Assembly (NCBI GenBank): GCA_045654425.1
Contig: JAZONJ010000152.1
Location: 1-27,574, forward strand
Direction of reading: 5' to 3'
Source of the DNA: Acutalibacteraceae bacterium
GTDB lineage: Bacteria > Bacillota > Clostridia > Oscillospirales > Acutalibacteraceae
Length of the DNA stretch: 27,574 bases
The notes under the pieces were generated by a model, which did not search any database, had not been told where the DNA came from, and worked only from the letters and a program-made list of their open reading frames with translations. Within the stretch, counting starts at the first letter, position 1; the number at the start of each line of letters is the position of its first letter. Made by a program: the position numbers and the translations under genes. Shown here in pieces: positions 5,612-25,628 of the stretch.

Positions 5612-5640
5612 TTGAAAAAAATCGGATTTTATGATAGAAT
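5612..5640 (+). promoter_or_regulatory. sigmaA-type promoter for degV
   Basis: TTGAAA, 17 bp, TAGAAT with a TGn extended -10, 23 bp upstream of the ATG. Confidence 0.7.
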
Positions 5641-5663
5641 TAATAAAAAATTATTAGGAGGCT

Positions 5664-6530: not shown

Positions 6531-6562
6531 ACTGACATTTGTTCACTTTTCTGCATAATATA

Positions 6563-6690
6563 AGACAGGGAGCAAACGGATATCCGATCAATCGGCGATA
6601 GCCTGCAGTCCTGTCTACAAGATTACCGACAGTTAAAAGTCTCCCTTGAATATAAAAAAGCCATCCGAATTCGGATGGCTTTCGTTTTTT
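6563..6690 (+). ncRNA. Candidate structured small RNA of unknown family
   Basis: ORF-less intergenic stretch with a promoter-like element upstream (6532-6561), nested hairpins and a downstream terminator. I do not recognise the family. Confidence 0.35.
6654..6690. terminator. Bidirectional intrinsic terminator
   Basis: Perfect 26-bp palindrome AAAGCCATCCGAATTCGGATGGCTTT (6657-6682) with A/T tracts on both sides, between convergent genes. Confidence 0.85.
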
Positions 6691-8154: not shown

Positions 8155-8179
8155 CTCTTAAAACTTTACATTACATTTG

Positions 8180-8208
8180 ATTATATAATAATATAATAGA
8201 AAAAGCAA
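8180..8208 (-). promoter_or_regulatory. sigmaA-type promoter for the two membrane-protein genes
   Basis: Minus strand TTGCTT (8208-8203), 17 bp, TATAAT (8185-8180). Confidence 0.65.
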
Positions 8209-8236
8209 GCACCGAATAGATGCTCGCCCTAAAGAT

Positions 8237-8521
8237 TTACAAAATATTCAAAACTAAAACCAATCCGCCAAATGCCACGAAAAGCATTGCCGAAAGAACA
8301 ATAAGCAATTTAATGTTCTTGTTTTTTGCTTTACCCGAAGATAAAAAATCGGTGTTCCCGACATCTGAACTCAACAAATCTATATACTTTTCAGCCTCGG
8401 CATAAAGCCTTTTTTGCGATGTGTGGCTTTGCTCCGGATTTACAAAAAGTATCGCCCGTTCAAAATACCCGTGGTCTGTACAATTAATTTCTATTACAGT
8501 TTTGTTTACGCCTTTTAACAT
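8237..8521 (-). CDS. Small hypothetical protein with a C-terminal TM anchor
   Basis: 94 aa, MLKGVNKTVIEINCTDHGYFERAILFV...; AGGAG RBS 7 nt upstream; hydrophobic C-terminus. Confidence 0.75.
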   Translation of the reverse strand: MLKGVNKTVIEINCTDHGYFERAILFVNPEQSHTSQKRLYAEAEKYIDLLSSDVGNTDFLSSGKAKNKNIKLLIVLSAMLFVAFGGLVLVLNIL

Positions 8522-8558
8522 AAAAATACTCCTGACTCAGTTGTTCAGGAGTATTTTT
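8522..8558 (-). terminator. 14-bp inverted repeat (terminator-like hairpin containing the RBS of the 94-aa gene)
   Basis: AAAAATACTCCTGA, 9 nt, TCAGGAGTATTTTT; the 3' arm on the minus strand carries AGGAG and runs directly into the ATG. Confidence 0.6.
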
Positions 8559-8581
8559 GGCAAAAAATGTATTAATTATTC
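8552..8581 (-). promoter_or_regulatory. Possible forespore (sigmaF/sigmaG-type) promoter
   Basis: Minus strand GAATA, 15 bp, GCCAAAAATA, close to the B. subtilis sigmaF consensus GYATA-15-GGnnAnAnT. AT-rich matches arise easily by chance. Confidence 0.35.
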
Positions 8582-8586
8582 AAAGA

Positions 8587-9282
8587 CTAATCCAAAACCT
8601 CAGTATCACCTGTTAAAAAGGCTATTGTACGCTCAACAGAATCTTTAGAATTGCCCCAATCGGCATTTTCACCCGAATTTCTGTAATCGTACATTCTGCA
8701 ATAATGGTCAAGGTCGTCCTGCAAGCCTTTAAGGGTGGCAGTAGCCTTTTCCTCTAAGGTTTTTACGAAGTCGTCGCCCCAACGCTTCATATTCTTTCGG
8801 TTTGCTCCATTCACAAGCATTGCGTAATGATTAAAGCAATAATAATCCTGATTCCCGAAAAGTTCTCTGAACTCACGATCATTTTCATAGGTACGATAAA
8901 TGGTATCAAGCATGCGTTCAAAACCCCAATTTATCTTTTCACAGACAAAACACGAGTCCATAAGTTCACTAGCTCTTGACGCTCTCTTTGCCGAAGACAC
9001 CAAAAAGCCTGCTTCGGTAACATTTTTTCTAACCTCTGCGGTATGTGTCTGAAGCATAAGCGCTAATGACAGTCTTCCGCGCATTTTAAGCATTCTCTTG
9101 AAATGCTTCCCGCAAAATCCGACCTCATTTGTCGCAATTCTTACATCAGGCTCCATCATAGCGGCTCCCATTATGTATTCAAGTATCCTTTTTTCAACCG
9201 TATCATACATTCGGCATATAGGACACCCGTCGTTTTCTTCAAAGGCGTCACTTATAGGTATTGTGCAAATATCTTCTCTCAT
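8587..9282 (-). CDS. DUF6062-like conserved protein with two CxxC...CxxH modules
   Basis: CPIC...MMEPDVR...GFCGKH and CFVC...YCFNH; C-terminal YDYRN...W. Family name from recollection. Confidence 0.7.
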   Translation of the reverse strand: MREDICTIPISDAFEENDGCPICRMYDTVEKRILEYIMGAAMMEPDVRIATNEVGFCGKHFKRMLKMRGRLSLALMLQTHTAEVRKNVTEAGFLVSSAKRASRASELMDSCFVCEKINWGFERMLDTIYRTYENDREFRELFGNQDYYCFNHYAMLVNGANRKNMKRWGDDFVKTLEEKATATLKGLQDDLDHYCRMYDYRNSGENADWGNSKDSVERTIAFLTGDTEVLD

Positions 9283-9284
9283 GG

Positions 9285-10130
9285 TTATTCTCCAATTTCT
9301 AATTTTGTCATTCTGGCATAGTGGAAGAGATACTGTTGTGCTATTCCGGCGTAAGGCTCGGCAAAATCTGGCAAAGCTCCGTCAAAAAGATTTGCCAAAA
9401 CCCTTTTAATCCATACATCTTTCGGTAAGACATCCACATGACCCATGCCAAAAAGCAAAACACAATCCGCAACCTTCTCACCTACACCGTATATCTTAAC
9501 AAGTTCGGCTCTGGCTTCGTCGCTTTTTAGTTTTGAAATCTTTTCAAGGTCAATCTCTCCCGAAGCGACCTTTTTTGCTGCATCAAGTATATATTTTGCT
9601 CTGAAACCCGACCTCAGCGGAGCTAAGTCCTCTAACGTAAGAGAGGCTATTTTCTCGGCAGATGGAAATGTGTAAAAACCACTTTCAAGTCTTTCTCCAA
9701 AGCTTTCACAAAGTCTCTCGATTATTCCCTTTATCCTCGGAATATTGTTATTCTGCGAAATTATAAAAGAGCAAAGGCACTCCCAAGGCTCCTGACGAAG
9801 CACTCTTATTCCCCCTGCAAACTCCGAAGCCTTTTTAAGGTTTTCATTTTTGCTGATAACTTTTTTAATGTAACTATAATCTCGGTCAAAATCAAAATAA
9901 TCTTTCCAGATTTTCTCGAACTCCGAAGAAGCGGTATTATAGAATGTGAGTTTGTTTCCCTCTTGTCGTATCTTCTTATATTTTCCGAAGGCTACACCCT
10001 CAAAACATCCGTCATCGGTAGCTTTCCATCTAAAAGCCTGACCGCAATCAAGAGTATCCTCTAGACTGAAAATATCTCCATCTAAAACTACCTCAATATT
10101 ATCACTTACCTGAAATACCGAGAGTCTCAT
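9285..10130 (-). CDS. ogg: 8-oxoguanine DNA glycosylase/AP lyase
   Basis: TLDCGQAFRW, GIRVLRQEPWECLCSFIISQNNNIPRIK, HhH YGVGEKVADC, PKDVW and AQQYLF motifs. Confidence 0.95.
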   Translation of the reverse strand: MRLSVFQVSDNIEVVLDGDIFSLEDTLDCGQAFRWKATDDGCFEGVAFGKYKKIRQEGNKLTFYNTASSEFEKIWKDYFDFDRDYSYIKKVISKNENLKKASEFAGGIRVLRQEPWECLCSFIISQNNNIPRIKGIIERLCESFGERLESGFYTFPSAEKIASLTLEDLAPLRSGFRAKYILDAAKKVASGEIDLEKISKLKSDEARAELVKIYGVGEKVADCVLLFGMGHVDVLPKDVWIKRVLANLFDGALPDFAEPYAGIAQQYLFHYARMTKLEIGE

Positions 10131-11305
10131 AATTTTCTCGCCTCAATATAGAAGCGCTTGTCGTCAGCGTGACCCATTGAAAAGGTTTTTCTGGGTAAAG
10201 AGCCATCTGCTGCTACCGCGCTGAAAAGCTCACTCTTTTTCATTCCGTCAAAGATAAATCCAACGGTATTCTCTTTTTCGCAAAGCTTTTTGGTGTCTTC
10301 AACACCGTGAATATAGTCGATTTTTACCTCAGGATTTTTGCTGAGATAATCGTCAAGGAAAGCCTGCAAAGTACCGACTGGAAGCTCGGCGGTAGGAGTT
10401 GCAAATATCGTTTCAGATCCCTCACAAGTCACCACCTCGAACGCATGACCGCACTTATCGGTAAAGCCTACAGCCTTTTCGAATTCAGATAAAAGATGTG
10501 TTTTGTCACAGTTAAACATAACGCGGTATATCGGTTCAAACTCGATTGCCTCATCGTAAATATTAACAATCTCAACAAGTGCGTAGCGGTTTTGCTCTGT
10601 GGGATTCAGACGATAACATTCCTTTGCTGTTGCAAGAGAATGGTTTCCGTCACCTACAGCGTATAAGAATCCGTTATCGACAAGGTTTTCGAGCGCAGAA
10701 TTTACCTTTTCGCAGTCCTCTCCCGAAACCTTGTAACCCTCGATATGTCCACCCTTTTGCATAAGTGCAAAATCGTATATTTTGCAAAGTTCGTTTTTCT
10801 TCGAAGAAAGATATCCGAGAACTTTATTTTCAGGGTCATTTATAAACACCATTACATGCGGAATCTCAAGAGGTGCTCCCTTACGAATTGCAACTCTTGG
10901 CGGAATTCTTTCGGCAACAGTCTGCTCGGTTGCTCTGCAAAGAGCGGTACTGCCGGCATTATAATCATATTCTTCAAGGTCAATCATACCAACAACACCA
11001 CGGCGGATATGGCCGCCTGTAATCTCTCTTTCTACATAAACGAAAGAATCTCCATAGAGCTCAAAAACATCTGATTCAAGATACTCTTTCATCGATGCGT
11101 TGATTTTTTCAACTCTTTGCTCAGTCTCTTCAAGATAAATTTCGGGAAGAATGATATTAAGAGCAGACGGAGAGTCTCCGACAGTTTTCTCAACCTCTTG
11201 CCAATACTCATTATCCGAAGTATATTGATCGCAGGCTATAACAGCCCATTTTTCATAGTCTTTTTTGGGCAAAAGTATGTTTGCAGGATATAAATATTTT
11301 TTCAT
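10127..11305 (-). CDS. DUF1015 family protein
   Basis: KWAVIACDQYTS, RATEQTVAERIPPR, YAVGDGNHSLATAK, DYIHG and LPRKTFSMG motifs. ATGA overlap with ogg. Confidence 0.85.
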   Translation of the reverse strand: MKKYLYPANILLPKKDYEKWAVIACDQYTSDNEYWQEVEKTVGDSPSALNIILPEIYLEETEQRVEKINASMKEYLESDVFELYGDSFVYVEREITGGHIRRGVVGMIDLEEYDYNAGSTALCRATEQTVAERIPPRVAIRKGAPLEIPHVMVFINDPENKVLGYLSSKKNELCKIYDFALMQKGGHIEGYKVSGEDCEKVNSALENLVDNGFLYAVGDGNHSLATAKECYRLNPTEQNRYALVEIVNIYDEAIEFEPIYRVMFNCDKTHLLSEFEKAVGFTDKCGHAFEVVTCEGSETIFATPTAELPVGTLQAFLDDYLSKNPEVKIDYIHGVEDTKKLCEKENTVGFIFDGMKKSELFSAVAADGSLPRKTFSMGHADDKRFYIEARKL

Positions 11306-11631: not shown

Positions 11632-13188
11632 TTATTTAGCGAAGTCGACAGCGCGGTTTTCGCGTATAACATTGACTTTAATTTGACCGGGATATTCAAG
11701 CTCATTCTCAATCTTGTTTGCGATATCACGAGCAATAAGTACCATCTGGTCGTCGCTGATAACCTCGGGCTTAACAACGATTCTGACCTCACGACCTGCC
11801 TGAATAGCGAAAGATGTTTCAACGCCATTGAAGGAATTGGCGATTTCCTCAAGTTTTTCAAGACGTTTAATGTAGCTTTCGATATTCTCACGGCGTGCTC
11901 CGGGTCTGGCAGCCGAAATAGCATCTGCAGCCTGAACTATAAAGGCTATTATTGTCTTAGCCTCTACCTCACCATGATGAGCATGGATAGCGTGAATAAT
12001 CTCTTCGTTTTCCTTATACTTCTTGGCTACTTCAACACCGAGCTGAATATGAGTTCCCTCTTGCTCGTGGTCAAGCGCCTTACCGATATCGTGGAGAAGT
12101 CCTGCACGCTTAGCCATGGTAACATCAACGCCAAGTTCTGCAGCAATAATACCAGAAAGGTGGCAAACCTCTAAAGAATGGTTCAGAACGTTCTGACCAT
12201 AGCTTGTACGATAATAGAGTTTACCGAGAAGCTTAACAAGTTCGGGATTGAGGTTATGTATGCCTGTTTCAAGCATAGCACGCTCACCCTCACGCTTGAT
12301 GGTGTTGTTAACGTCATTCTGAGCCTTAGTAACCATCTCTTCAATTCTTGCAGGATGGATTCTTCCGTCTGTAATGAGCTTTTCAAGAGCGATTCTTGCA
12401 ACCTCACGTCTGATGGGGTCAAAGCTCGAAACAGTAATTGCTTCGGGAGTATCGTCAATTATGAGGTCAACACCTGTAGCAGTTTCAAGGGCTCTGATGT
12501 TTCTACCTTCACGGCCGATAATTCTTCCCTTCATTTCATCACTCGGAAGCGGAACTACCGATACGGTTACCTCAGAAGAATGGTCAGCAGCACAGCGCTG
12601 AATAGCGCGGGCAAGAATCTCTCTTGCGATATTTTCCTGCTCATCAATTGTCTTCTGCTCATAATCCTTTACCTTAAGTGCTTTCGCATGGGTAAGCTCA
12701 TCGTCAAGTAACGACAGAAGATAATCCTTAGCCTGTTCCTTTGAATAACCGGAAATACGCTCAAGCATCTCAAGCTGACTGCGTTTAATCTGCTCGGTCT
12801 CTTCAATTTTTGCCTCAACATCTTTTACACGCTGAGCAAGTTTTTCTTCCTTCTGCTCAAGGTTGTCTATTTTCTTGTCAAGGGTCTCTTCCTTCTGCTG
12901 AAGTCTGCGTTCCTGACGCTGAACCTCGCTTCTGCGTTCACGCAGGTCTCTTTCGGTTTCCTGACGAAGCTGATGAACTTCTTCCTTAGCTTCAATCAAG
13001 ACTTCTTTTTTCTTTGCTTCGGCATTTTTGATAGCGTCGCTGAGAATTCTTCTTGATTCTTCTTCGGCAGAGCCAATTGCCTTTTCGGCTTTATTCTTTC
13101 TTACAGCCGAACCGACGAAGAAAAACACAAGTGAAAATGCCACTGCGACGATGCCTAAAATTACATAATATAAAATTCCTTCGGGCAT
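11632..13188 (-). CDS. rny: Ribonuclease Y
   Basis: N-terminal TM, coiled coil, KH domain ([13 protein letters not shown]), HD domain (LNHSLEV...LLHDIGK), [11 protein letters not shown]; AAGGAGGTG RBS. Confidence 0.98.
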
Positions 13189-13360
13189 GTAATATGCACC
13201 TCCTTATATATTAAACTGCATTTAGTTTTACGAGGCTGCAGTTTTTTGGCCTCGGTAAAAATTGGATGTTTTTTAAAAACTCCGCCCGCCAAAGCGGAAT
13301 AGACTAAAAAACTGTGGACCGCAAAATTTGACAAAAAATGCCAAATACTACTCTCCCACA
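13189..13360 (-). promoter_or_regulatory. Long (~170 nt) structured 5' leader of rny, including a predicted H-type pseudoknot
   Basis: Lies between the predicted promoter and the ATG. Complementary segments CGAGGC/GCCTCG and AAACTGCA/TGCAGTTT are interleaved. Confidence 0.55.
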
Positions 13361-13366
13361 ATAGAT

Positions 13367-13395
13367 ATAATACCACTATATTTATTGTCTGTCAA
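13367..13395 (-). promoter_or_regulatory. sigmaA-type promoter for rny
   Basis: Minus strand TTGACA (13395-13390), 17 bp, TATTAT (13372-13367) with TGn extension. Confidence 0.75.
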
Positions 13396-13416
13396 GAAAT
13401 ACTATTACAATAAATA

Positions 13417-13440
13417 GTGGCAGGTTGTGTAACCTGCCGC
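13417..13440 (-). terminator. Hairpin downstream of the AraC gene
   Basis: GGCAGGTT-4-AACCTGCC 8-bp stem right after the stop codon, with a weak T-rich tail. Confidence 0.55.
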
Positions 13441-13445
13441 TTCTT

Positions 13446-14267
13446 TCATTTATTGTTTGGATGCTTGCTTGATGGCGCTTCGCCGAAGTTTTTAATATAT
13501 GCTCTGTAAAAGGTTGAGTAATCACCAAACCCACATTCAGCATAGATAGCGGTTGGCTTTGCTCCGTCATTTATAAGACGTCTTGCCATTACAAGTCTTT
13601 TTATCGTAACATACTGTCCCATTGTCGTTCCTGTCGCTTTTTTGAAGATTCTGCAAAGCTGAGGCTTGCTTATATAAAACTTGTCGCAAATTTCATTAAG
13701 GGTAAGTTTTTCGGAGATATGTTTATTCACATATCGTATTATTTTATACTCAAGGCTTTCGCTCTGCTCCTGATTTGCCGCAGTATCCGAGAATACTTTC
13801 GATATTTCATTAAGAAGCAAAAATAAATTTGACACAACATTTAAACGGTCATTAAGACCCGGTGTCATCATATTTTCTATGCAAACCTTATGTATTTCAT
13901 CTTTAAAACGGAAGTTTTTATAAAGATTCAGTTTTCCGGCTTTTCTCTCAAAAAGAGGTCTGAGCAGAGTTCTGTCGGGGTCAATGGAATCGAAAATGCT
14001 AATATCAAAGTTGATAACGGCTCTTTCATAAGGGTAATTATTATCGACAGTAGTATAATGAGACTCCGCAGGTCGGATAAAGAGTATATCTCCGCGTTCG
14101 GGGACATATTCTGTTCCTTCAACATGAAAAACCGTTTTTCCGGCAATAAAATAAAGAATCTCTGCCGTTTCGTGAGTATGCATATAATGTCGTGCAACTT
14201 CAAATTTTTCATTTCGAGGCATTGTTGCACGGACTTTATCATCACAATAAGAAAAATTAATAGCCAT
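13446..14267 (-). CDS. AraC/XylS family transcriptional regulator (cupin sensor + double HTH)
   Basis: HYMHTHETAEILYF cupin motif; ISKPQLCRIFKKATG and CGFGDYSTFYRAY HTH motifs; divergent from the sugar operon. Confidence 0.95.
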   Translation of the reverse strand: MAINFSYCDDKVRATMPRNEKFEVARHYMHTHETAEILYFIAGKTVFHVEGTEYVPERGDILFIRPAESHYTTVDNNYPYERAVINFDISIFDSIDPDRTLLRPLFERKAGKLNLYKNFRFKDEIHKVCIENMMTPGLNDRLNVVSNLFLLLNEISKVFSDTAANQEQSESLEYKIIRYVNKHISEKLTLNEICDKFYISKPQLCRIFKKATGTTMGQYVTIKRLVMARRLINDGAKPTAIYAECGFGDYSTFYRAYIKNFGEAPSSKHPNNK

Positions 14268-14308
14268 TATTTCGCCCCCTTTTTCTGCATTGTAGCACGC
14301 TCGGATAA

Positions 14309-14368
14309 TTTTTGCAATCTTTTTTGCGAATTTTTGTAATTGTATTGCAAATATAAAAAAGGTACATT
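14309..14368 (+). promoter_or_regulatory. Phased TTG(C/T)NA repeats (candidate AraC half-sites) and promoter
   Basis: TTGCAA 14312, TTGCGA 14324, TTGTAA 14334, TTGCAA 14345 (spacing 10-12 bp). Possible TTGTAT-17-TACATT at 14340-14368. Confidence 0.4.
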
Positions 14369-14388
14369 ATATATGGAGGTATATTGCT

Positions 14389-15234
14389 ATGTCATTAAAC
14401 GGTTTTAAATTAGCAGCTTTTGCAGATGAAAGCGACAACAAATTTTCAGGTCAGTTAGATGCGCTTGTTCGAAATGGACTTGACGCTCTCGAAATGAGAA
14501 ATGTTGACGGAAAAAATGTTGTAGCTCTCACCGCAGAAGAGGCTAAAGAATATAAAAAACATCTATCCGACAAAGGTTTATCGGTATGGTCTATCGGTTC
14601 TCCGCTCGGAAAAATTAAGATTACAGACGATTTTGCACCCCACCTTGATTCATTTAAATCAGGCATGGAGATCGGAGGCGTTCTCGGTGCAGAGGCTTGC
14701 AGAATGTTCAGTTTTTATATGCCTGACGGTGAAAATCCTAACGACTATAAAAACGAGGTTATCGACCGACTTGGCAAATTCACTGAGATCGCAAAGGAAT
14801 ATAATATTGTCCTTTGCCATGAGAATGAAAAAGGAATTTACGGAGATATTCCCGAGCGTTGTCTCGAAATACATAAGGCTCTTCCCTCTCTCAAAGCGGT
14901 TTTCGACCCCGCGAATTTTGTTCAGTGTGGTGTTAACACCCTTGAGGCTTGGGATATGCTGAAAGATTATGTATATTACCTACATATAAAAGACTCGAAA
15001 GCTGACGGTGCTATCGTTCCTGCAGGCGTCGGCGACGGTAATGTCAAAAAGATAATTAAGCTTTATAAAGATATGGGCGGTAAGGTGCTGACTCTAGAGC
15101 CGCATCTGTTTGAATTTGACGGGCTGGGCGCCCTTGAAAAAGAAGGGAATACGAGTGAAGTCGGCGGATATAATTTCGCTACAGCCGAAGAGGCTTTCGA
15201 TTATGCCGTCACAGCGCTTAAAAATATTATTTAG
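14389..15234 (+). CDS. Sugar phosphate isomerase/epimerase family protein (xylose-isomerase-like TIM barrel)
   Basis: AFADE N-terminal motif; metal-ligand pattern HENE, FDPAN, HIKD, LEPH; GGAGG RBS. Confidence 0.9.
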   Translation: MSLNGFKLAAFADESDNKFSGQLDALVRNGLDALEMRNVDGKNVVALTAEEAKEYKKHLSDKGLSVWSIGSPLGKIKITDDFAPHLDSFKSGMEIGGVLGAEACRMFSFYMPDGENPNDYKNEVIDRLGKFTEIAKEYNIVLCHENEKGIYGDIPERCLEIHKALPSLKAVFDPANFVQCGVNTLEAWDMLKDYVYYLHIKDSKADGAIVPAGVGDGNVKKIIKLYKDMGGKVLTLEPHLFEFDGLGALEKEGNTSEVGGYNFATAEEAFDYAVTALKNII

Positions 15235-15249
15235 AGGAGAGAAAAATCC

Positions 15250-15990
15250 ATGAAACTCGGAGCACAACTTTATACATTAAGAGAATTTACAAAGAACCCG
15301 GAACAGTTTAGCGAAACTCTCAAAAAAGTAGCAGATATAGGTTATACCGAAGTTCAGGTTTCGGGCACCTGTGATTACGAAGCAGAGTGGCTCAAAACAG
15401 AGCTTGACAAAAACGGACTTTCTTGTGTTATAACACACTTTAAGCCCGACAGAGTTGTTGCCGACCCTGCCGAAGTGGTTAACTTTCACAAGGTGTTTAA
15501 CTGTAACAGAGTCGGAATAGGATTTTTCGACCTACACAATAAACCCGTTGAAGAACTTTGCGATACTATTCTCTGCAAAGCTCCCGAAATTAAAGCGGCC
15601 GGCGGAAAGCTTTACTACCATAACCACGCAGTTGAATTCAAAAAGGTAGACGGCAAGAGAAACATAGACTATATTCTTGAAAGATTTTCACCTGACGAGC
15701 TCGGTATTATAATGGATACATACTGGGTTCAAAAGGGCGGTGCAGATCCTATCGAATGGCTTTATAAACTCGAAGGCAGAGTTGACGCTATTCATTATAA
15801 GGATATGTTCTGGAACGGAGACATGGCTCCCATCGGTGAAGGTAATATGAATTTTGAAGGAATTATCGCCGCTTCCGAAAAGGTTGGAGTCGAACACATT
15901 CTTGTTGAACAGGACAACTGTAACGGCGAGGATCCGTTTGATTGTTTAACACGTAGCTATAGATATCTGACCTCACTCGGTCTTAAATAA
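15250..15990 (+). CDS. Sugar phosphate isomerase/epimerase family protein (xylose-isomerase-like TIM barrel)
   Basis: GAQLYTLR, YYHNHAVEF, MDTYWVQKGG, IHYKD, IGEG and VEQD motifs. Confidence 0.9.
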   Translation: MKLGAQLYTLREFTKNPEQFSETLKKVADIGYTEVQVSGTCDYEAEWLKTELDKNGLSCVITHFKPDRVVADPAEVVNFHKVFNCNRVGIGFFDLHNKPVEELCDTILCKAPEIKAAGGKLYYHNHAVEFKKVDGKRNIDYILERFSPDELGIIMDTYWVQKGGADPIEWLYKLEGRVDAIHYKDMFWNGDMAPIGEGNMNFEGIIAASEKVGVEHILVEQDNCNGEDPFDCLTRSYRYLTSLGLK

Positions 15991-16002
15991 AGGAGATACA
16001 CA

Positions 16003-17172
16003 ATGGAAAAGATTCGTTTAGGTATAATCGGTATCGGAAACATGGGTGCGATTCACTGCAACCACATTTTAAGCGGAAAGTGCCCCGAAATTGAGCTTGT
16101 TGCAGTTGCAGACGTAAAGGAAAGCAGAAGAGAATGGGCAAAGGGAAATCTGCCCGAAAGCGTTGCTGTTTTTGCAACCGCTGAGGAGATGCTTGATTCG
16201 GGCTTTATCAACGGATGTATTGTTGCTGTTCCCCACTATGACCACCCGAAATATGCAATGGAGTGTATGAAGCGGGATATTCACGTTATGGTTGAAAAGC
16301 CTGCGGGTGTGTATACCAAACAGGTCAGAGAAATGAACGAGGAAGCTAAGAAACATAACGCCGCTTTCGGTATGATGTTCAACCAACGCGCTACCGATGT
16401 CTACATAAAGGTTCACGAGCTTGTTCATTCGGGTAAATACGGTCAGATTCGCCGTACAAACTGGATTATTACAAACTGGTACCGTCCTCAGGCTTATTAT
16501 GATTCAGGCGATTGGAGAGCAACCTGGTCGGGAGAAGGCGGTGGCGTTCTTCTTAACCAGTGTCCTCATCAGCTCGACCTCTGGCAGTGGATATGCGGTA
16601 TGCCCGTTAAGGTAATGGCAAAAATCAAATATGGTCAGTGGCACGACATTGAGGTTGATGACGATGTTACGGCTTTTGTTGAATATGAAAATGGTGCTAC
16701 CGGTGTGTTCGTTACCACAACAGGTGACGGAAACGGTTCTAACCGTCTCGAAATTCAGATGGATAAATGTCAGATTATCGTTGACGGAAATGATATAAAG
16801 ATGATAGAATATGATATAAGTGAGCCTGAACACTCAAAGACAAATACAAATCCGTTCGGACCTGTTCCGAAGCACGAGGTCGAGGTTACTCACGAAGGTC
16901 GCGCACCCCATCATCCTGCCGTTCTTAACGCTTGGGCAGACCATATTCTCCACGGCGGTAAGATGATTGCAGAGGGATACGAAGGAATTAACGGACTTAC
17001 ACTTTCTAACGCTATGCACCTTTCCTCATGGCTTGATAAGGAAATTACGCTTCCCCTTGATGAAGACCTTTACTACGAAGAGCTTATGAAGAGGGTTGCA
17101 ACCTCACGTCGCAAGACTAACGTAAAGGAAGTCGTCGCAAACGCAGCAGATACCTTCAGCGGCTCAAAATAA
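16003..17172 (+). CDS. Gfo/Idh/MocA family NAD-dependent oxidoreductase
   Basis: GIIGIGNMG, VPHYDH, VEKP and WRATWSGEGGGVLLNQCPHQLD motifs. Confidence 0.93.
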   Translation: MEKIRLGIIGIGNMGAIHCNHILSGKCPEIELVAVADVKESRREWAKGNLPESVAVFATAEEMLDSGFINGCIVAVPHYDHPKYAMECMKRDIHVMVEKPAGVYTKQVREMNEEAKKHNAAFGMMFNQRATDVYIKVHELVHSGKYGQIRRTNWIITNWYRPQAYYDSGDWRATWSGEGGGVLLNQCPHQLDLWQWICGMPVKVMAKIKYGQWHDIEVDDDVTAFVEYENGATGVFVTTTGDGNGSNRLEIQMDKCQIIVDGNDIKMIEYDISEPEHSKTNTNPFGPVPKHEVEVTHEGRAPHHPAVLNAWADHILHGGKMIAEGYEGINGLTLSNAMHLSSWLDKEITLPLDEDLYYEELMKRVATSRRKTNVKEVVANAADTFSGSK

Positions 17173-17198
17173 AAGATTTCTCAAATAGGAGCATATAT

Positions 17199-18371
17199 AT
17201 GGACTCTGTAAAAGTCGGTATAATCGGTGTTGGTAATATCGGTTCTGCCCATGTAAAATGTATTTCAGATGGCAAGGTTGACGGTATGATACTTTCAGCC
17301 CTTTGTGATATTAATCCGGAAAAGAAAGTCTCCCTTACAGAGGCTTATCCCGACATTCCCTTTTTCTCCGATTATAAGGAACTCTTAAAATCGGGTATTA
17401 TTGATGCTGTTATTGTATCTACACCGCACAAGTTTCATGTTGATATAGCTAAAGAAGCCCTGTCCGCAGGGCTTCATGTGCTTGTCGAAAAACCTGTTGA
17501 TATAACCGTTTCAAAAGCAAAAGAGATAAATCTTTTAGCATCCAAAACCAACAAGGTTTTCGCAATCATGTTTAATCAGCGTACAAATGCTCTCTTTTCA
17601 AAAGCCCGTGAAATCGTTAAAAGCGGCGCTCTCGGCGAGCTTAAACGCTCGGTCTGGATAATAACTAATTGGTACCGCACACAACGCTACTACGATTCGG
17701 GAGATTGGCGAGCAACCTGGTCAGGCGAGGGTGGCGGTGTGCTTCTCAATCAGGCTCCTCATCAGCTTGACCTATGGCAATGGATATGTGGTATGCCGGT
17801 AGAGATTTCCGCTATGTGTGATATAGCAAAATACCACCGCATTGAAGTTGAGGATGACGTTACCATAACTGCAAGATATGCTAACGGTGCAACAGGCGTT
17901 TTCATAACCTCAACCGGAGAATACCCAGGTACCAACCGACTTGAAATTTCGGGTGACAAAGGTAAAATCGTATTAGAAAACGGCACTCTCAAATGGTGGC
18001 GACTTAAAGACTGCGAACGCGAAATTTGTTTCAGTTCGGACTCTAATTCTCCGAAAATTGAAACCGAGTATCTCGAATTTGAAGAAAATGCTCCAGAATC
18101 TGCTCACAGAGGCATCCTTCAGAATTTTGCAAATGCCATTCTTTTAGGAGAACCTCTTCTTTCGCCCGGAACAGACGGTATATATGAACTTTCAATTTCT
18201 AATGCCGCCTACCTTTCGGCTTATAAAAAAGCTCCTGTTACCCTACCCATTGACACAAATGAATTCGATAGGTTTTTAAAGAAAAAAATCAGAGAATCCG
18301 AAGAAAAAACAACCACTCGTACCACTAACGAAAACGATGAGTATTCTTCTCGTTGGAAGGTTAAATGGTGA
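17199..18371 (+). CDS. Gfo/Idh/MocA family NAD-dependent oxidoreductase (paralog of the preceding gene)
   Basis: GIIGVGNIG, TPHKFH, VEKP and WRATWSGEGGGVLLNQAPHQLD motifs. Confidence 0.93.
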   Translation: MDSVKVGIIGVGNIGSAHVKCISDGKVDGMILSALCDINPEKKVSLTEAYPDIPFFSDYKELLKSGIIDAVIVSTPHKFHVDIAKEALSAGLHVLVEKPVDITVSKAKEINLLASKTNKVFAIMFNQRTNALFSKAREIVKSGALGELKRSVWIITNWYRTQRYYDSGDWRATWSGEGGGVLLNQAPHQLDLWQWICGMPVEISAMCDIAKYHRIEVEDDVTITARYANGATGVFITSTGEYPGTNRLEISGDKGKIVLENGTLKWWRLKDCEREICFSSDSNSPKIETEYLEFEENAPESAHRGILQNFANAILLGEPLLSPGTDGIYELSISNAAYLSAYKKAPVTLPIDTNEFDRFLKKKIRESEEKTTTRTTNENDEYSSRWKVKW

Positions 18372-18375
18372 TTTT

Positions 18376-19989
18376 ATGAAAACTGTTAAAATCTCAAAAT
18401 GCGAAAATATACTTAAAGAAATAAACAGTGCAATAAATAATGATACCGAAATTCTTATTGAGCCTAACATATACCATATCCATCAGAATGAATGTGCCGT
18501 TAAAACCTACAATATAACAAACTCCACACCACAGCGTAACGCAGATAAATTCGGTATACCTTATGACCATCATCTTATGATAAGCGTGGATGGCAAAAAG
18601 AATGTTGTTATTGACGGACAGGGCTCAAAATTCATCTGTCACGGAAAAATGACACCGTTTTCCACCTTTAATTCGGAAAACATAACCTTCAAAAATATTA
18701 CTGTTGATTATGCAGACCCTACCGTTATGGAAATGGAAGTGCTCGAAATCGGCGATGGTTATTCGGTTGTTAAGGTTCATCCTGATTCAAAATACCGCAT
18801 CGAAAACGGAAACATCACATGGTATGGCGAAAATTTTGAGTTCTATGATACAAAGCATTATTATCACATCTATCATCCTGCCGATGACTGTATGAGAAAG
18901 CACGGTTTTAGCCCCATGGCAGATGAAACGGCAAGATACGAAGACCTTGGCGACCGAAAGGTTAAAATCTCATACCAAAATGAAAATTATAATCCCTATA
19001 ACTTTATAGTGGGTGGTATTGCCCAACTTCGTGATGGTGTGCGTGATGAATGCGGTTCTTTCTTTGGTTGGAGTAAAGATATCACAGTAAATAACGTTAC
19101 CATGCACTTTATGCATGGTCTAGGCTTCGTTTCTCAGTGTAGCGAAAACATTACCCTAAATCACGTTACCTGCGCACCCGACCCTGAAAGCGGACGAATC
19201 TGTTCCTGCTTCGCCGACGGAAGCCAGTTTTCAAACTGCCGCGGTCAAATAAACATAACAAATTGTGTTTTCAGAGGTCTACACGATGACCCCGTCAACA
19301 TTCACGGTACATATCTTAAAATAGTTGAATCAAAGGGAAATGAGATTGTTGCAAAATTCATTCAGCCCGACTCTTTCAATTTTAATATCTTCCGTGACGG
19401 CGATACTATTGAATCGCGTGACCCCGAATATATGCTCAAAAAAGGTGAAGCAAAAGTCTTATCAAGCGAGCTGATTGACCCATATCATATAAAAGTTGTC
19501 CTTGACAGAGATGCGTCTGATTTCACCATAGGTAGAGTTATTGAAAATCTTTCGGCTAATCCCGATGTTTATATTGCAGGATGTCATTCAAGCCGAGTTA
19601 CAACAAAGGGATTTTTAACAGGCACCAGAGGTAAGGTTCTTATCGAAAACAATACCTTTGTCAACTTCCGAAGACCTTGTGTGTTGCTCGCTTGCGATAC
19701 ACAAAGTTGGTACGAATCAGGTCCTGTTAACGATGTTACAATCAGAAACAACTTTCACATTAACTGCACCGAACAAAACATATATATTATAAAACCTGAA
19801 AACACTAAGTTTTCAGATAATGAATTTGTAAACCACAACATTCTTATTGAAAACAACCGTGCCGAAGGCTCACAGAACAGTTGGCTTTACGCTAAGAGCA
19901 CCGACAATCTTATCTTTAGAAACAATGTTTCGGGATTTGAACCTCTACCACCCGAGCTTATTAACTGCGGAAAAGTAATATACGAATAG
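18376..19989 (+). CDS. GH110-like right-handed beta-helix glycosidase (alpha-1,3-galactosidase family), no signal peptide
   Basis: VVIDGQGSKFICHG, NITFKNITVDY, GRICSCFADGSQFSNCRG...GLHDDPVNIHGTYL and WYESG match the GH110 pattern. I placed the start at ATG 18376 (MKTVK), just after the upstream stop; the ORF track starts at 18337. Confidence 0.8.
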   Translation: MKTVKISKCENILKEINSAINNDTEILIEPNIYHIHQNECAVKTYNITNSTPQRNADKFGIPYDHHLMISVDGKKNVVIDGQGSKFICHGKMTPFSTFNSENITFKNITVDYADPTVMEMEVLEIGDGYSVVKVHPDSKYRIENGNITWYGENFEFYDTKHYYHIYHPADDCMRKHGFSPMADETARYEDLGDRKVKISYQNENYNPYNFIVGGIAQLRDGVRDECGSFFGWSKDITVNNVTMHFMHGLGFVSQCSENITLNHVTCAPDPESGRICSCFADGSQFSNCRGQINITNCVFRGLHDDPVNIHGTYLKIVESKGNEIVAKFIQPDSFNFNIFRDGDTIESRDPEYMLKKGEAKVLSSELIDPYHIKVVLDRDASDFTIGRVIENLSANPDVYIAGCHSSRVTTKGFLTGTRGKVLIENNTFVNFRRPCVLLACDTQSWYESGPVNDVTIRNNFHINCTEQNIYIIKPENTKFSDNEFVNHNILIENNRAEGSQNSWLYAKSTDNLIFRNNVSGFEPLPPELINCGKVIYE

Positions 19990-19997
19990 TTTATAAG

Positions 19998-20028
19998 AAC
20001 GCCCTTTTACTATAAGGGGCGTTTTTTT
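19998..20028 (+). terminator. Intrinsic terminator of the sugar operon
   Basis: AACGCCC...GGGCGTT stem followed by a T tract. Confidence 0.85.
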
Positions 20029-20060
20029 ATGAACTTTTTTCTTTTCTTTCACATTTTCTC

Positions 20061-20089
20061 TTGCATTAAGACGCAAAATATATTATTAT
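20061..20089 (+). promoter_or_regulatory. sigmaA-type promoter for the aminotransferase
   Basis: TTGCAT, 17 bp, TATTAT. Confidence 0.65.
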
Positions 20090-20121
20090 AAAGTGTAATA
20101 TTTTAATTTGGAGGATTATAG

Positions 20122-21402
20122 ATGTCTGACTATCGTTCCATGGGACTGGAGGCTCTATCTGCAGAGTTTGAAAAAGTAAAAACAGAATACGAAAAAATCA
20201 AGGCTTCAGGCCTTACCCTTGATATGACCAGAGGAAAACCGGGTTTTGACCAGCTTGACCTTTCCGAAGGATTACTTACTAACGTAGGTGGCGACAAGGG
20301 ATATATCGCTATGAAGGGTACCGACTGTCGTAACTATGGTGGACTTGACGGACTCGATGAGCTTAAAGAACTTTTTGGAAATATACTTGGAATCAATTGG
20401 GAAAATGTCATTTGCGGAGGCAACTCTTCTCTCAATATGATGTTCGATACAATTACTCAGGGTATGGTTTCGGGATTTGGAGAAGGACCTTGGCTCAGTC
20501 AGGGTAAAATCAAATTCATCTGTCCCGCTCCCGGATATGACCGCCATTTCGGTATATGCGAATATTACGGAATTGAAATGATTCCCGTTAAATATCTTTC
20601 CGATGGTCCTGATATGGACGCTGTTGAAGAACTTGTAAAAGACCCCACCGTTAAAGGTATGTGGTGCGTTCCGAAGTATTCCAACCCCACCGGTATCACC
20701 TATTCTGACGCAGTTGTGAAGCGTATTGCCGCTCTCAAGCCTGCCGCAAAGGATTTCAGAATAATGTGGGACAACGCCTATGTTATTCACGATCTTTATG
20801 AAAACGGTGATAAGCTTCTCGGAATTTATGAAGAGTGTAAGAAAAACGGTAACGAAGACATTGTTATCATGTTTACTTCAACTTCAAAGATTTCTTTCCC
20901 CGGTGCCGGAATTGCTGTTGAAGCCGCAAGTGATAATAACATGCGCTTCTTAAAATCAAGAATGACAATTCAGACTATCGGACCTAATAAACTCAATCAG
21001 CTTTGTCATGCAAGAATGTTCCCGAACACTGAGGCTCTTCTAGCTCATATGAAAAAACATGCGGATGTTTTAAGACCGAAATTTGAGGCTTGCCTTGAAA
21101 GCTTCGACCGTGAGCTTGCCGGCAAAGGTATTGCCGAATGGACTAAGCCTCTCGGCGGTTATTTCATTAGCATGATGGTAATGAATGGTTGCGCTAAGCG
21201 TGTCGGAGAGCTCTGCTCGGCAGCAGGACTCAGCATCACAAAGCCCGGCGCTACCTATCCCTACGGAAAAGACCCCGATGACAGCAATATCAGAATTGCT
21301 CCGTCTTATCCGAGTGCTGCAGATATGGCAAAAGCCGCTGATGTACTCTCGGTAGCAGTAAAATATGCCGCGTTGGAGAAGCTTTTAAACGACAAAAAAT
21401 AA
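20122..21402 (+). CDS. PLP-dependent aminotransferase (class I/II; actinobacterial-type aspartate aminotransferase-like)
   Basis: LDMTRGKP, RNYGGLDG, PGYDRHF, VPKYSNPTG, WDNAY, STSKISFPG (PLP lysine), GGYFIS and NIRIAPS motifs. Confidence 0.9.
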   Translation: MSDYRSMGLEALSAEFEKVKTEYEKIKASGLTLDMTRGKPGFDQLDLSEGLLTNVGGDKGYIAMKGTDCRNYGGLDGLDELKELFGNILGINWENVICGGNSSLNMMFDTITQGMVSGFGEGPWLSQGKIKFICPAPGYDRHFGICEYYGIEMIPVKYLSDGPDMDAVEELVKDPTVKGMWCVPKYSNPTGITYSDAVVKRIAALKPAAKDFRIMWDNAYVIHDLYENGDKLLGIYEECKKNGNEDIVIMFTSTSKISFPGAGIAVEAASDNNMRFLKSRMTIQTIGPNKLNQLCHARMFPNTEALLAHMKKHADVLRPKFEACLESFDRELAGKGIAEWTKPLGGYFISMMVMNGCAKRVGELCSAAGLSITKPGATYPYGKDPDDSNIRIAPSYPSAADMAKAADVLSVAVKYAALEKLLNDKK

Positions 21403-21408
21403 AACCCT

Positions 21409-21437
21409 TTGACATTATGTAATATTAATCATATAAT
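21409..21437 (+). promoter_or_regulatory. Consensus sigmaA promoter for secDF
   Basis: TTGACA, 17 bp, TATAAT. Confidence 0.85.
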
Positions 21438-21469
21438 ATATTTTACAAATACTTTTTGGAGGACCTGCT

Positions 21470-22852
21470 ATGAAAGCAAAAAAGACAGGTAAGTGGGTAT
21501 TTCCCTTTCTTCTCATTTTAATACTCCTTCTTACCTATACATCATTCTTCGGCATAGAGAACTACTATGGCGATGCACGCGAAATAACCTTTAAGGGCGC
21601 TAAAGATATCCGTTGGGGTATCGATATACGCGGCGGTGTTGAAGCTGTGTACTCTCCCGATAAGAATGTCGATGACATAACCAAGCAAGATATGGATGCT
21701 GCTAAGGCAATCATCGAAACCCGTCTCGTCAACAACAACATTACCGACTATGAGGTTTTTGCTGATATGAACAACAATCAGATTGTTGTCCGATTCCCTT
21801 GGTCAAGTGATGCTACACAGTTTGATGCAGACGCAGCTTACAAGGAAATTGAAGGCCTTGGCGAAACCGCTCTTCTCACCTTCCGTGAGGGAACCGCTGC
21901 TGACGGCACATTAATCCTTGAAGGTAAAGATGTTGCTGAGGCTTATGAAAATATTGACCCCGAAACCGGCGCTAATATCGTTTCACTTGAGTTTACCGCT
22001 GCAGGTAAATCAAAATTTGCCGAAGCTACTGCAAAGCTTGTCGGAAAACAGATTTCTATCTGGATGGACGATGCAATGATTTCTGCTCCAACCGTTAAGA
22101 CCGCCATTACTGATGGCGCTTGCTACATAGACGGTATGGCAAATGCAGAAGAAGCAAAAGAGCTTGCGGACAAGATTATGGCAGGTTCACTTCCCTTTGC
22201 ATTAACCGCTGACAACGATAAAACTCAGATTGTTTCTCCGACCCTCGGTTCTGACGCTCTCAGAGTTATGCTTATCGCAGGTTCTATCGCGTTCGGCGTT
22301 ATCTGCATTCTTATGATTGCTCTCTATAGACTCCCCGGTGTTATCGCAAGCATTTCTCTCCTTGGACAGCTTGCTTGTATGATAGCTTGTATCTCGGGCT
22401 ATTTCGCAGGTACAAACAGCTTCACACTTACAATCCCTGGTATTGCAGGTATCATCCTTTCAATCGGTGTCGGTGTTGACGCTAACGTTATTGCGGCCGA
22501 GCGTATCAAGGAAGAGTTCAAAAACGGCAAGACCATTGACGCCTCCATTAATGCAGGTTATAAAAACTCAGTCAGCGCTATTATCGACGGTAACGTAACT
22601 ATCGTTATTGTTGCTCTCGTTCTTATGGGTGCATTCGGTTCGACAGATTCTATCTTAGGTAAAATCTTTGCTCCCTTAATGTCCCTCTTCGGTGCTACAA
22701 TCACAGGTTCGATCTACTCCTTCGGTTACACACTTCTCCTCGGTGTTATCTTCAATCTCCTCCTCGGAGTACTCTGCTCTAAGTGGATGATGAAGAGCAT
22801 CTCCAGATATAAGTTCTTTAGAAAGCCTGTTTTATTCGGAGGTGCAAAATAA
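21470..22852 (+). CDS. secD: Protein translocase subunit SecD
   Basis: WGIDIRGG, VSPTLG, GIAGIILSIGVGVDANVI..ERIKEE and AIIDGNVT motifs. Confidence 0.95.
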   Translation: MKAKKTGKWVFPFLLILILLLTYTSFFGIENYYGDAREITFKGAKDIRWGIDIRGGVEAVYSPDKNVDDITKQDMDAAKAIIETRLVNNNITDYEVFADMNNNQIVVRFPWSSDATQFDADAAYKEIEGLGETALLTFREGTAADGTLILEGKDVAEAYENIDPETGANIVSLEFTAAGKSKFAEATAKLVGKQISIWMDDAMISAPTVKTAITDGACYIDGMANAEEAKELADKIMAGSLPFALTADNDKTQIVSPTLGSDALRVMLIAGSIAFGVICILMIALYRLPGVIASISLLGQLACMIACISGYFAGTNSFTLTIPGIAGIILSIGVGVDANVIAAERIKEEFKNGKTIDASINAGYKNSVSAIIDGNVTIVIVALVLMGAFGSTDSILGKIFAPLMSLFGATITGSIYSFGYTLLLGVIFNLLLGVLCSKWMMKSISRYKFFRKPVLFGGAK

Positions 22853-23781
22853 TGTTTAAGAATATTGATTTTAATAAAGCATTTAAATTTGTTCTTATAG
22901 GTTATGCTGTTTTCTTCGTAATCGGCATTATCTTCACTGTAATCTGGGGTGGAGTAAACCTTTCTATCGACTTTAAGGGTGGTACAAGAGTTTCCTACTC
23001 CTATGAAGGCGATGTTGATTTTAACGATGTGCAGAGCAAGGTTCAAGCCGCTATTGGCAAGGATGTTATAATCAGCGAAAACGTTGGTCTTTCGGGCGAT
23101 TCCAAAACACTTATCGTAACCCTCGTCGGTGACGAATCTCTCTCGACAGACTCTCAGCAGAAAATCGAAGAGACTCTTACAAAGACTTATCCTGACAACA
23201 AGTTCGCATTTGAAGAATCAAAGTCGGTAAGTCCCTCTCTTGCAGGCGCTTTCTTCCTTAAGTGTCTTGTAGCAGTTCTTATTGCAGGCGCACTCGTTAC
23301 GGTATATGTTGGTATCCGTTTCAGAAAGATTGGTGGCGTTTCGGCAGCAGTTACCGCTTTTGCGGCTCTCTTCCTTGACGTATTTACAGCATTTTTCGCC
23401 TGTGCAATCTTCAATCTTCCCATTGATATGAACTTTGTCGCAGTTCTTCTTACAATTCTTGGTTACTCGCTTAACGATACCATCGTTATTTACGACCGTA
23501 TTCGTGAGGATAAAACCCTCTACCACAAGCTTTCAACAGCCGATCTCGTTAACGGCGCTGTTAATAAGGTAAAATCTCGTACCTTTATTACAACTGTTAC
23601 CACCTTCCTCGCTGTTGTCATGATCATCGTGGTTGCTGAGTTCTTTGGACTCTCTTCACTCAGAAGCTTCGCAATCCCGATGGCAATCGGTCTTATCTCG
23701 GGTTGTATCTCTTCCCTCTTTATTTCGGCTCCTCTCTGGGTCCTCTGGAAGAACTACTCAGATAAAAAAGCAAAGAACTAA
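22852..23781 (+). CDS. secF: Protein translocase subunit SecF
   Basis: SIDFKGGT, GYSLNDTIVIYDRIRE and SRTFITT motifs; TAATG overlap with secD. Confidence 0.95.
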   Translation: MFKNIDFNKAFKFVLIGYAVFFVIGIIFTVIWGGVNLSIDFKGGTRVSYSYEGDVDFNDVQSKVQAAIGKDVIISENVGLSGDSKTLIVTLVGDESLSTDSQQKIEETLTKTYPDNKFAFEESKSVSPSLAGAFFLKCLVAVLIAGALVTVYVGIRFRKIGGVSAAVTAFAALFLDVFTAFFACAIFNLPIDMNFVAVLLTILGYSLNDTIVIYDRIREDKTLYHKLSTADLVNGAVNKVKSRTFITTVTTFLAVVMIIVVAEFFGLSSLRSFAIPMAIGLISGCISSLFISAPLWVLWKNYSDKKAKN

Positions 23782-24521: not shown

Positions 24522-25562
24522 ATGGAAAAGAAATTACGCATTGGTGTTATTGGCGCAGGTTCGTTCTGCAGATGGCATCTTGACGGTATCAACAACTCGA
24601 AGCACGCCCAGGCCGTTGTCGTTTGTGACATCGATATTGAGAAGGCAAAACTCAGAGCATCAGAGTACGGTGTACCTGAGTATTGCAGCGATTACAAAGA
24701 GCTTCTTGCTCGCGATGATATCGACGCCGTAACCCTTCCCCTTCCCGATCAGGAGCACTGCGTTGTTGCTTGCGACGCTCTCAGAGCCGGCAAGCACGTT
24801 CTTTGCGAAAAGCCCATGGCTCTTAATCTCGATGAGTGCAAGGAAATGGTAAGAGTAGCAAGAGAAACCGGCAAACAACTTATGGTTGGTCAGATTGGTC
24901 GTTATACTCCTTCTTTCTTAAAGGCTAAGGAGCTTCTTGAATCCGGAGCTATCGGTGACCTCTTCTTTATTGAATCTGAATACGCACACGACTATTCCAG
25001 AATCCCCGGTTCTACATACGGCGATAATACAATACCCTGGAGAAAGACTCCCGAACGTGAGCCTATCCTTGGTGGCGGCTGCCACGCACTCGACCTTATC
25101 AGAATGATTGCAGGCGATCCCGAAGAGGTATTCTCATTTGCTAACAATATGAGTCTTACAGATTGGCCTATTCACGATACCTCTATTTCTGTTATGAAAT
25201 TCCCGAACGGCGTTATCGGTAAGGTGTTCAACTCCCACGGTTGTAAGAGAGAATATACAATGCGTTCTTTACTTTACGGCACCAAGGGCACGATTATCTT
25301 TGATAACACCTCTTCTACAATAACTCTTTACAAGGAAAATATGATTGAGGGAATGGATACAAGAACTCTTCCTGTTACAATTCCTGTAACCGTTAACAAC
25401 CACAATTTTGCCGCAGAGGTTGAAGATTTTGCATCTGCAATACTCGAGGGCAGAACCGTAATTACCGATGGAGTTTCAGGTGCAAAGACCGTTTCTCTCG
25501 GTGTTGCGATCATTGAATCCTTCACAACAGGCAAGCCTGTAACTGTTGACTACGATATTTAA
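24522..25562 (+). CDS. Gfo/Idh/MocA family oxidoreductase (monocistronic)
   Basis: GVIGAG, LPDQEH, LCEKPM, MVGQ and GGGCHALD motifs; GGAGG RBS. Confidence 0.93.
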   Translation: MEKKLRIGVIGAGSFCRWHLDGINNSKHAQAVVVCDIDIEKAKLRASEYGVPEYCSDYKELLARDDIDAVTLPLPDQEHCVVACDALRAGKHVLCEKPMALNLDECKEMVRVARETGKQLMVGQIGRYTPSFLKAKELLESGAIGDLFFIESEYAHDYSRIPGSTYGDNTIPWRKTPEREPILGGGCHALDLIRMIAGDPEEVFSFANNMSLTDWPIHDTSISVMKFPNGVIGKVFNSHGCKREYTMRSLLYGTKGTIIFDNTSSTITLYKENMIEGMDTRTLPVTIPVTVNNHNFAAEVEDFASAILEGRTVITDGVSGAKTVSLGVAIIESFTTGKPVTVDYDI

Positions 25563-25580: not shown

Positions 25581-25628
25581 AAAAAGAAAGCGCGGTTTGT
25601 GTTCTGCACCGCGCTTTCTTCCTTTTTA
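25581..25628. terminator. Bidirectional intrinsic terminator
   Basis: AAGAAAGCGCGGT-11-ACCGCGCTTTCTT between convergent genes. Confidence 0.8.

Follow-up and report, generated by a model that had tools for sequence, protein, structure and literature searches.

When gut bacteria strip glucuronic acid off drugs, hormones and dietary compounds, this is usually credited to GUS beta-glucuronidases. A GUS-independent route is provided by the P2B11-type pathway, so far known from a single metagenomic fosmid, P2B11, of Gram-positive gut origin (Nasseri, Withers et al., bioRxiv 10.1101/2024.03.25.586180). The four proteins encoded there, two of them oxidoreductases and two 'sugar phosphate isomerases', act without a DUF1080 protein and together cleave alpha- and beta-glucuronides, with 6-phospho-glucosides, 6-sulfo-glucosides and sulfoquinovosides as slower substrates; the activity is stimulated by Mn2+/Co2+, added NAD(P)(H) is without effect, and Oxido1 was reported as the key enzyme, the effects of Oxido2 being minor (bioRxiv 10.1101/2024.03.25.586180). 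A literature search found no 3-keto-glucuronide pathway paper beyond this 2024 preprint. Here, a related operon is described that occupies positions 13446-19989 of a 27,574-nucleotide stretch of DNA (the window) from an Acutalibacteraceae bacterium (GenBank assembly GCA_045654425.1, contig JAZONJ010000152.1, positions 1 to 27,574).

The region is best read as an AraC-associated operon. Its core, formed by two proteins of the xylose isomerase (XI) fold, XI-A and XI-B, and two Gfo/Idh/MocA oxidoreductases, Gfo1 and Gfo2, probably represents the Gram-positive, P2B11-type form of non-Koshland glycoside cleavage, to which a cytoplasmic GH110 protein, likely an exo-alpha-galactosidase, has been added behind Gfo2. 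An earlier reading of the letters alone (the original prediction) had recognized enzymes of the 3-keto-glycoside redox/elimination kind, which is borne out by the structural matches described below, and had proposed a new pathway, which is not: the four-gene core is a homologue of the characterized P2B11 cluster and is elsewhere embedded in glucuronate-catabolic operons. The core is a further member of a recently described kind of system, and the appended cytoplasmic GH110 is what is new in this operon. The source of the window is a metagenome-assembled genome (MAG) that is 63% complete and 1.13 Mb in size, and the records related to it carry the labels Acutalibacteraceae or gut Clostridia. 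Six genes, the AraC gene and five on the plus strand, sit between rny (11632-13188, minus strand) and an aspartate aminotransferase/secD/secF block (20122-23781, plus strand), and the features of the region are as follows.

13446..14267, minus strand: AraC-family regulator with a cupin ligand domain and a helix-turn-helix (HTH) domain, divergent from the operon (Pfam HTH_18, HTH_AraC, AraC_binding)
14268..14388, no strand assigned: divergent control region with the ribosome-binding site (GGAGG) of XI-A (sequence)
14389..15234, plus strand: XI-fold (AP_endonuc_2) protein A, 281 aa (Pfam, E 1.5e-18)
15250..15990, plus strand: XI-fold (AP_endonuc_2) protein B, 246 aa (Pfam; PDB matches 8TCD/8TCS and 8BVK)
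16003..17172, plus strand: Gfo1, Gfo/Idh/MocA oxidoreductase (Pfam GFO_IDH_MocA; PDB 8TDI)
17199..18371, plus strand: Gfo2, Gfo/Idh/MocA oxidoreductase (Pfam GFO_IDH_MocA; PDB 8TDI)
18376..19989, plus strand: GH110-family protein, 537 aa, with 18337 as an alternative upstream start of the same open reading frame (PDB matches, predicted structure)
19996..20027, plus strand: intrinsic terminator at the operon end, a GC-rich hairpin (20002-20018) followed by TTTTTTT

Evidence for the assignment of the core comes from the two oxidoreductases. In a PDB search, both aligned over nearly their whole length with 8TDI, the 'P2B11 glucuronide-3-dehydrogenase' (Gfo1, E 2.2e-96, residues 1-367; Gfo2, E 3.5e-99, residues 1-371), and their next-best matches reached E values of 1e-26 to 1e-31, every other Gfo/Idh/MocA structure scoring 1e-31 or worse. 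The active-site residues of 8TDI, N147, W179, R181, Y185, N205 and H209 (paper numbering, i.e., chain index + 10), are identical in both proteins, where they fall in the motifs FNQR, NWYRxQxYY (NWYRPxxYY in Gfo1) and LNQxPHQ. As originally predicted, the two are paralogues, with GFO_IDH_MocA detected twice and 42% identity between them. No other gene of the operon is as well conserved as Gfo1: amino acid identity to the related loci L006 and L008 is 95-97% for Gfo1, 69-73% for Gfo2 and 73-75% for GH110. A recombination breakpoint between Gfo1 and Gfo2/GH110 was considered as the source of this contrast; nucleotide identity falls gradually, without a clean break (Gfo1 84-88%, rny 84%, Gfo2 68-73%, GH110 70-75%, aspartate aminotransferase gene 78-79%), and unequal constraint appears to fit better. 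The far stronger constraint on Gfo1 parallels the key role of Oxido1 and the minor one of Oxido2 in P2B11, and on this analogy Gfo1 is the putative counterpart of Oxido1, while Gfo2 would serve as a second or recycling dehydrogenase.

The XI-fold proteins complete the resemblance. Two distinct members had been predicted, and AP_endonuc_2 indeed occurs twice, in proteins without any relation at the sequence level. XI-B matched 8TCD/8TCS (E 4e-22) and, over its full length, AtOGE (8BVK, E 8e-18); its H124, D156, H182 and E220 align with the Mn2+ ligands H132, D163, H189 and E233 of AtOGE, and its H126 with the catalytic base H134. It is accordingly predicted to act, like AtOGE, AL1 and BT1, as a 3-keto-glycoside 1,2-lyase (beta-eliminase). 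XI-A returned weak PDB matches only (Art22, AsbF), and an Atlas look-up gave only 'sugar phosphate isomerase/epimerase' clusters; by analogy, it may be the counterpart of one of the P2B11 'Iso' proteins and act as a lyase/hydratase.

The genomic context of related cassettes provides information on the product of the pathway. A genome scan with Gfo2 returned more than 580 related stretches in gut Clostridia genomes, at 57-75% identity, and 80 loci were fetched. Outside the clade of the window, 42 of the fetched loci repeat the gene order XI-A, (XI-B), Gfo1, Gfo2, XI-A being the first cassette gene in all of them and XI-B being present in 33; related cassette loci with an AraC homologue in the equivalent divergent position number 35. 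At least one of uxuA (21), uxuB (21) and uxaC (10) lies directly upstream on the same strand in 25 of the 42, the uxuB call referring to a short-chain dehydrogenase/reductase that scores above the cut-off as D-mannonate oxidoreductase (416 bits vs 281). The placement of these orthologous cassettes in uxuA/uxuB/uxaC operons gives independent, if indirect, support for glucuronate as the product of the cassette; glucuronide specificity in the present organism is presumed by extension. In L093, an 82%-identical relative, kdgK, uxuB and uxuA are located 3.5 kb beyond the operon, and the genome of the window carries uxaC on another contig. A close Gfo homologue was found in 114 of 301 sampled Acutalibacteraceae genomes, a count that takes in other subfamilies.

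Several of the fetched loci show further arrangements. Complete (AraC) uxaC-uxuA-uxuB-XIA-XIB-Gfo-Gfo operons occur in L090 (298-9890), L042, L070, L019 and L020, and in L090 a GH78-type alpha-L-rhamnosidase gene directly follows the cassette. Gum arabic bears Rha-alpha1,4-GlcA caps, of which this placement is reminiscent, and the appended GH78 suggests that exo-glycosidases are sometimes recruited to the cassette. Single Gfo2-like genes (~60% identity) without XI-fold partners are found behind an M20 peptidase gene and a PGA_cap (CapA-like) gene in L068, L071, L074 (5514-9176) and L048. In addition, several genomes of the family have Gfo homologues of 48-53% identity inside open frames of 670-770 aa (e.g., G086:C7:36298-37428, G276:C2, G134:C17 and G237:C14), which may be fusions with another domain.

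The last gene had been predicted to encode a cytoplasmic GH110, and this assignment is upheld by sequence matches and by structure. Pfam yielded only a sub-threshold GLAA-B barrel match; in the PDB search, the protein matched AgaBb at E 1e-66 and four other GH110 structures at E 1e-36 to 1e-44. An AlphaFold 2 model built with a 69-sequence alignment (pLDDT 95.8) shows a right-handed beta-helix with two inserted beta-barrels and superimposes on all solved GH110 members with TM-scores of 0.85-0.90. In a Foldseek search, ranks 1-15 were all GH110 chains (TM 0.81-0.90), the next fold scoring below 0.4. D304 corresponds to the general acid D351 of AgaBb, and D281 and D305 to the base candidates D328 and D352, all three being invariant or nearly so in the 69-sequence alignment; the -1 subsite is likewise kept, with R223, N308, W445 and E447 for R270, N355, W509 and E511 of AgaBb. 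By contrast, the arginine of the +1 subsite (R475 in AgaBb), present in 21 of 22 paralogues and in 10/10 other GH110s, is replaced by K411 in 9/9 sequences of the group termed clade I, which also has substitutions of its own around the +1 region (S405, T409, K411, V429, F431 and H461). The change from R475 to K411 bears on aglycone specificity, not on GH110 membership. Unlike in most GH110s, the N-terminus is without a hydrophobic stretch or signal peptide, and the protein is most likely a cytoplasmic exo-alpha-galactosidase with an altered aglycone (+1) site.

This GH110 belongs to a sharply separated subfamily, whose members are 46-85% identical to the protein of the window, all other GH110s being at most 41% identical to it. 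The subfamily has 100/100 support in the tree and consists of three subclades, the protein of the window falling in the operon-linked clade I. The same genome encodes two more subfamily paralogues, in tandem on contig C23 beside an LOR-domain gene, a transglutaminase-core gene and glgC/D/A. Paralogues, often as tandem pairs, were also observed in L005 (the C23 locus of this genome, G000; 5640-10702), L007, L009, L011, L094, L095 and L096. In this conserved module, a transglutaminase-core gene (~405-418 aa) consistently overlaps or abuts the end of the GH110 gene, an LOR/scramblase-like gene often precedes the GH110 gene and a DUF3792 gene sometimes follows. Since peptide:N-glycanases (PNGases) share the transglutaminase core, a role of the module in cytoplasmic deglycosylation is conceivable.

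The GH110 gene is almost certainly co-transcribed with the cassette, judging from the arrangement of the genes. Gaps of 15, 12, 26 and 4 nt separate the five plus-strand genes in order, and no convincing internal terminator was found in the operon. The start codon of the GH110 gene is most likely the ATG at 18376, 4 nt past the Gfo2 stop, as a GGTGA Shine-Dalgarno sequence precedes it and homologues begin at the same Met. The original prediction of a single unit bounded by a promoter and a terminator therefore stands for the tight gaps and the terminator at 19996..20027, while its promoter is less well defined: the AraC/XI-A intergenic region of 121 nt contains weak matches to the sigma-70 consensus only, and a promoter in 14268..14388 is assumed from position. 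On the opposite side, a terminator hairpin (13419-13438) lies just behind the stop codon of AraC. As also predicted, transporter, kinase and DUF1080 genes are absent from 13446-19989. No RNA data set was listed as containing the operon, and the DNA data sets listed for it were gut metagenomes with a small share only.

Whether the GH110 and the cassette belong together functionally was considered from their distribution. The original prediction would have the GH110 conserved with the cluster in other genomes, which is largely not the case: GH110 is found in 0/34 of those other cassette loci whose downstream DNA extends for 1.7 kb or more, no other GH110-Gfo adjacency occurs among 300 sampled genomes of the family, and the subfamily, restricted among these 300 to the genome of the window, also exists in cassette-free genomes. 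Ordinary GH110s (up to 36% identity) never share a neighbourhood with Gfo matches in the 300 genomes. Within the clade, the picture is different in that every clade I member has a Gfo2-GH110 junction of at most 7 nt or overlapping genes, despite divergence to 72% amino acid identity. The fusion of cassette and GH110 is conserved in at least seven diverged lineages, and because of this recurrence the arrangement is not due to chance. The GH110 is a recent add-on, limited to a small, narrow Acutalibacteraceae clade of gut Clostridia, and a functional link to the cassette is possible; coupled action of the two is regarded as somewhat less likely than not.

The principal rival explanation holds that the GH110 is a functionally unrelated passenger, co-transcribed without a common substrate, the rny-aspartate aminotransferase gap being a variable insertion site. 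This gap (window 13189-20121) is indeed a variable locus, and relatives with 92-93% identity in RNase Y show it in three states. Cassette and GH110 are both present in the window, L006, L008, L093, L097, L098 and the contig of P0006, and several observations on the other states weigh against a joint function: L012 has the cassette only, L010 has only a GH110, which comes from a different subclade of paralogues, and the genomes G301 and G302 carry the subfamily and no cassette. The usual context of the subfamily, an LOR gene and a transglutaminase-core gene, and its absence from the other 34 cassette loci point in the same direction, and no glycan was identified as needing both GH110 and cassette. 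However, the 4-nt junction is too short for a promoter or terminator of its own and has been kept in all of the at least seven clade I lineages, the substitutions that clade I alone has at the +1 subsite suggest that the enzyme adapted once it had been recruited, and an exo-glycosidase has likewise been appended to the cassette in L090. Taken together, a mere passenger appears unlikely, albeit by no means negligible. Certain findings also count against the P2B11-type assignment itself: identity to P2B11-Oxido1 is only about half, so that substrate specificity could differ; the gene order is Iso-Oxido-Oxido-Iso in P2B11 and Iso-Iso-Oxido-Oxido here; and short peptides specific to P2B11-Oxido1 were not found in any fetched locus, nor was a near-identical P2B11 locus, which places the source lineage of P2B11 outside the fetched loci. 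Furthermore, the MAG of the window yielded no uxuA, uxuB or kdgK, which at 63% completeness shows nothing.

Two alternatives concern the substrate of the cassette. In the pathway as originally proposed, the GH110 would free alpha-Gal and the redox/lyase set would handle the remaining glycoside, a cyclitol (e.g., from galactinol) or the released sugar, with no part played by uronic acids. The operon structure, the use of Gfo and XI folds in inositol catabolism and weak sub-threshold IolG/IolE matches are compatible with such a scheme, yet it is very improbable considering that the best structural relatives are a glucuronide 3-dehydrogenase and 3-keto-glycoside lyases and that the orthologous cassettes reside in uxuA/uxuB/uxaC operons rather than in iol or alpha-galactoside operons. 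Ordinary inositol enzymes (IolG, IolE, IolI), which would have counted against the original prediction, were ruled out by scores far below the NCBIfam equivalog cut-offs (IolG, 86 and 130 bits vs 355; IolE, 43.5 bits vs 290). The C-glycoside system DgpA/B/C was rejected as well: DgpA structures match Gfo1/Gfo2 only at E 1e-6 to 1e-15, and no DgpB/C lyase chain appears among the PDB matches of XI-A or XI-B. Alternatively, the cassette might have shifted to another C6-anionic glycoside (a galacturonide, a 6-phospho- or 6-sulfo-glycoside, or a sulfoquinovoside) whose alpha-Gal decoration is served by the GH110. P2B11 slowly cleaves 6-phosphate, 6-sulfate and sulfoquinovoside substrates (bioRxiv 10.1101/2024.03.25.586180), the uxu genes are outside the operon in this clade, and Gfo2 evolves fast (69-75% amino acid identity vs 95-97% for Gfo1). 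Nevertheless, neither Gfo protein shows a change in its active-site residues and the close relative L093 keeps uxuA, uxuB and kdgK nearby, and such a shift is scarcely to be expected.

Under the favored P2B11-type reading, all steps of the mechanism are transferred from P2B11, AL and BT biochemistry. A Gfo enzyme with tightly bound NAD would oxidize C3 of the glucuronide, XI-B as a Mn/Co-dependent lyase of the XI fold, together with XI-A as a second lyase/hydratase, would eliminate the aglycone, and the resulting glycal would be hydrated and the 3-keto-uronate reduced back, so that free glucuronate could enter the UxaC/UxuB/UxuA route. The GH110 may trim alpha-Gal off the same imported oligosaccharide, and it is possible that this takes place ahead of the redox set in the narrow clade where the fusion is retained. 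A more specific form of this idea, in which the GH110 acts as a gatekeeper that removes an alpha-1,3-Gal capping O-3 or the non-reducing end of a uronic-acid oligosaccharide and thereby exposes the C3-OH for the 3-dehydrogenase, is rather improbable. If true, the breakdown of a single substrate would obligately couple a classical inverting glycosidase to a redox-elimination system, and candidates for this substrate would be a dietary arabinogalactan/gum oligosaccharide or a microbial exopolysaccharide fragment.

Further genes for sugar metabolism were observed just past secDF, namely a third Gfo/Idh/MocA oxidoreductase (window 24522-25562, plus strand; 346 aa, IolG-like below the cut-off) and a GH35 beta-galactosidase (25626-27368, minus strand); kdgK, uxuB and uxuA occupy the matching position in L093. 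Together with the GH110, the third Gfo and the GH35 hint at the use of galactan or arabinogalactan oligosaccharides.

Oscillospirales-type gut Clostridia commonly carry homologous cassettes, most of which lie in glucuronate-catabolic operons and have an AraC regulator, and the cassette survey adds what was missing from the P2B11 report, a physiological context and a regulator. In addition, an uncharacterized intracellular GH110 subfamily has been revealed, and the operon of the window, whose GH110 has a remodelled aglycone site, offers a test case for the cooperation of classical and redox-elimination glycosidases on one substrate.

Compared with described systems, the operon is closest to P2B11, with which it shares a Gram-positive gut origin and the combination of two Gfo/Idh/MocA and two XI-fold proteins without a DUF1080 protein or a transporter. 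It differs in its divergent AraC gene, P2B11 having been reported without a nearby regulator, and in a GH110 gene translationally coupled to the last oxidoreductase gene. The 3-keto-glucoside systems Bacteroides BT2156-2160 and Alistipes AL1-4, together with AtOGE (8BVK, 8TCD, 8TCS, 8TCT), agree with XI-B in fold, Mn ligands and catalytic His, and BT2156-2160 and AL1-4 follow the same logic of oxidation, elimination, hydration and reduction as is proposed here; in contrast, these two work on neutral glucosides in the periplasm and rely on a DUF1080 alpha-lyase/hydratase, and the NCBIfam BT_2158 and BT_2159 scores of the operon proteins are 25-60 bits vs cut-offs of 650-750. The hexuronate (Ashwell) operons uxaC-uxuA-uxuB-kdgK, which hold the cassette in the 25 related loci and have the same type of AraC regulator, differ from the operon of the window, which does not include uxaC, uxuA, uxuB or kdgK. 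Finally, the GH110 shares its fold, its Asp triad and the residues that bind galactose at subsite -1 with the known GH110 alpha-1,3-galactosidases (AgaBb, 8YK1-3; AmGH110, 8PVS; PdGH110B, 7JW4; PpaGal, 9I4F), from which it is distinguished by the absence of a signal peptide and of anchoring or carbohydrate-binding modules, by a lysine for the +1-site arginine with further clade-specific changes around residues 405-461, and by its intracellular operon context.

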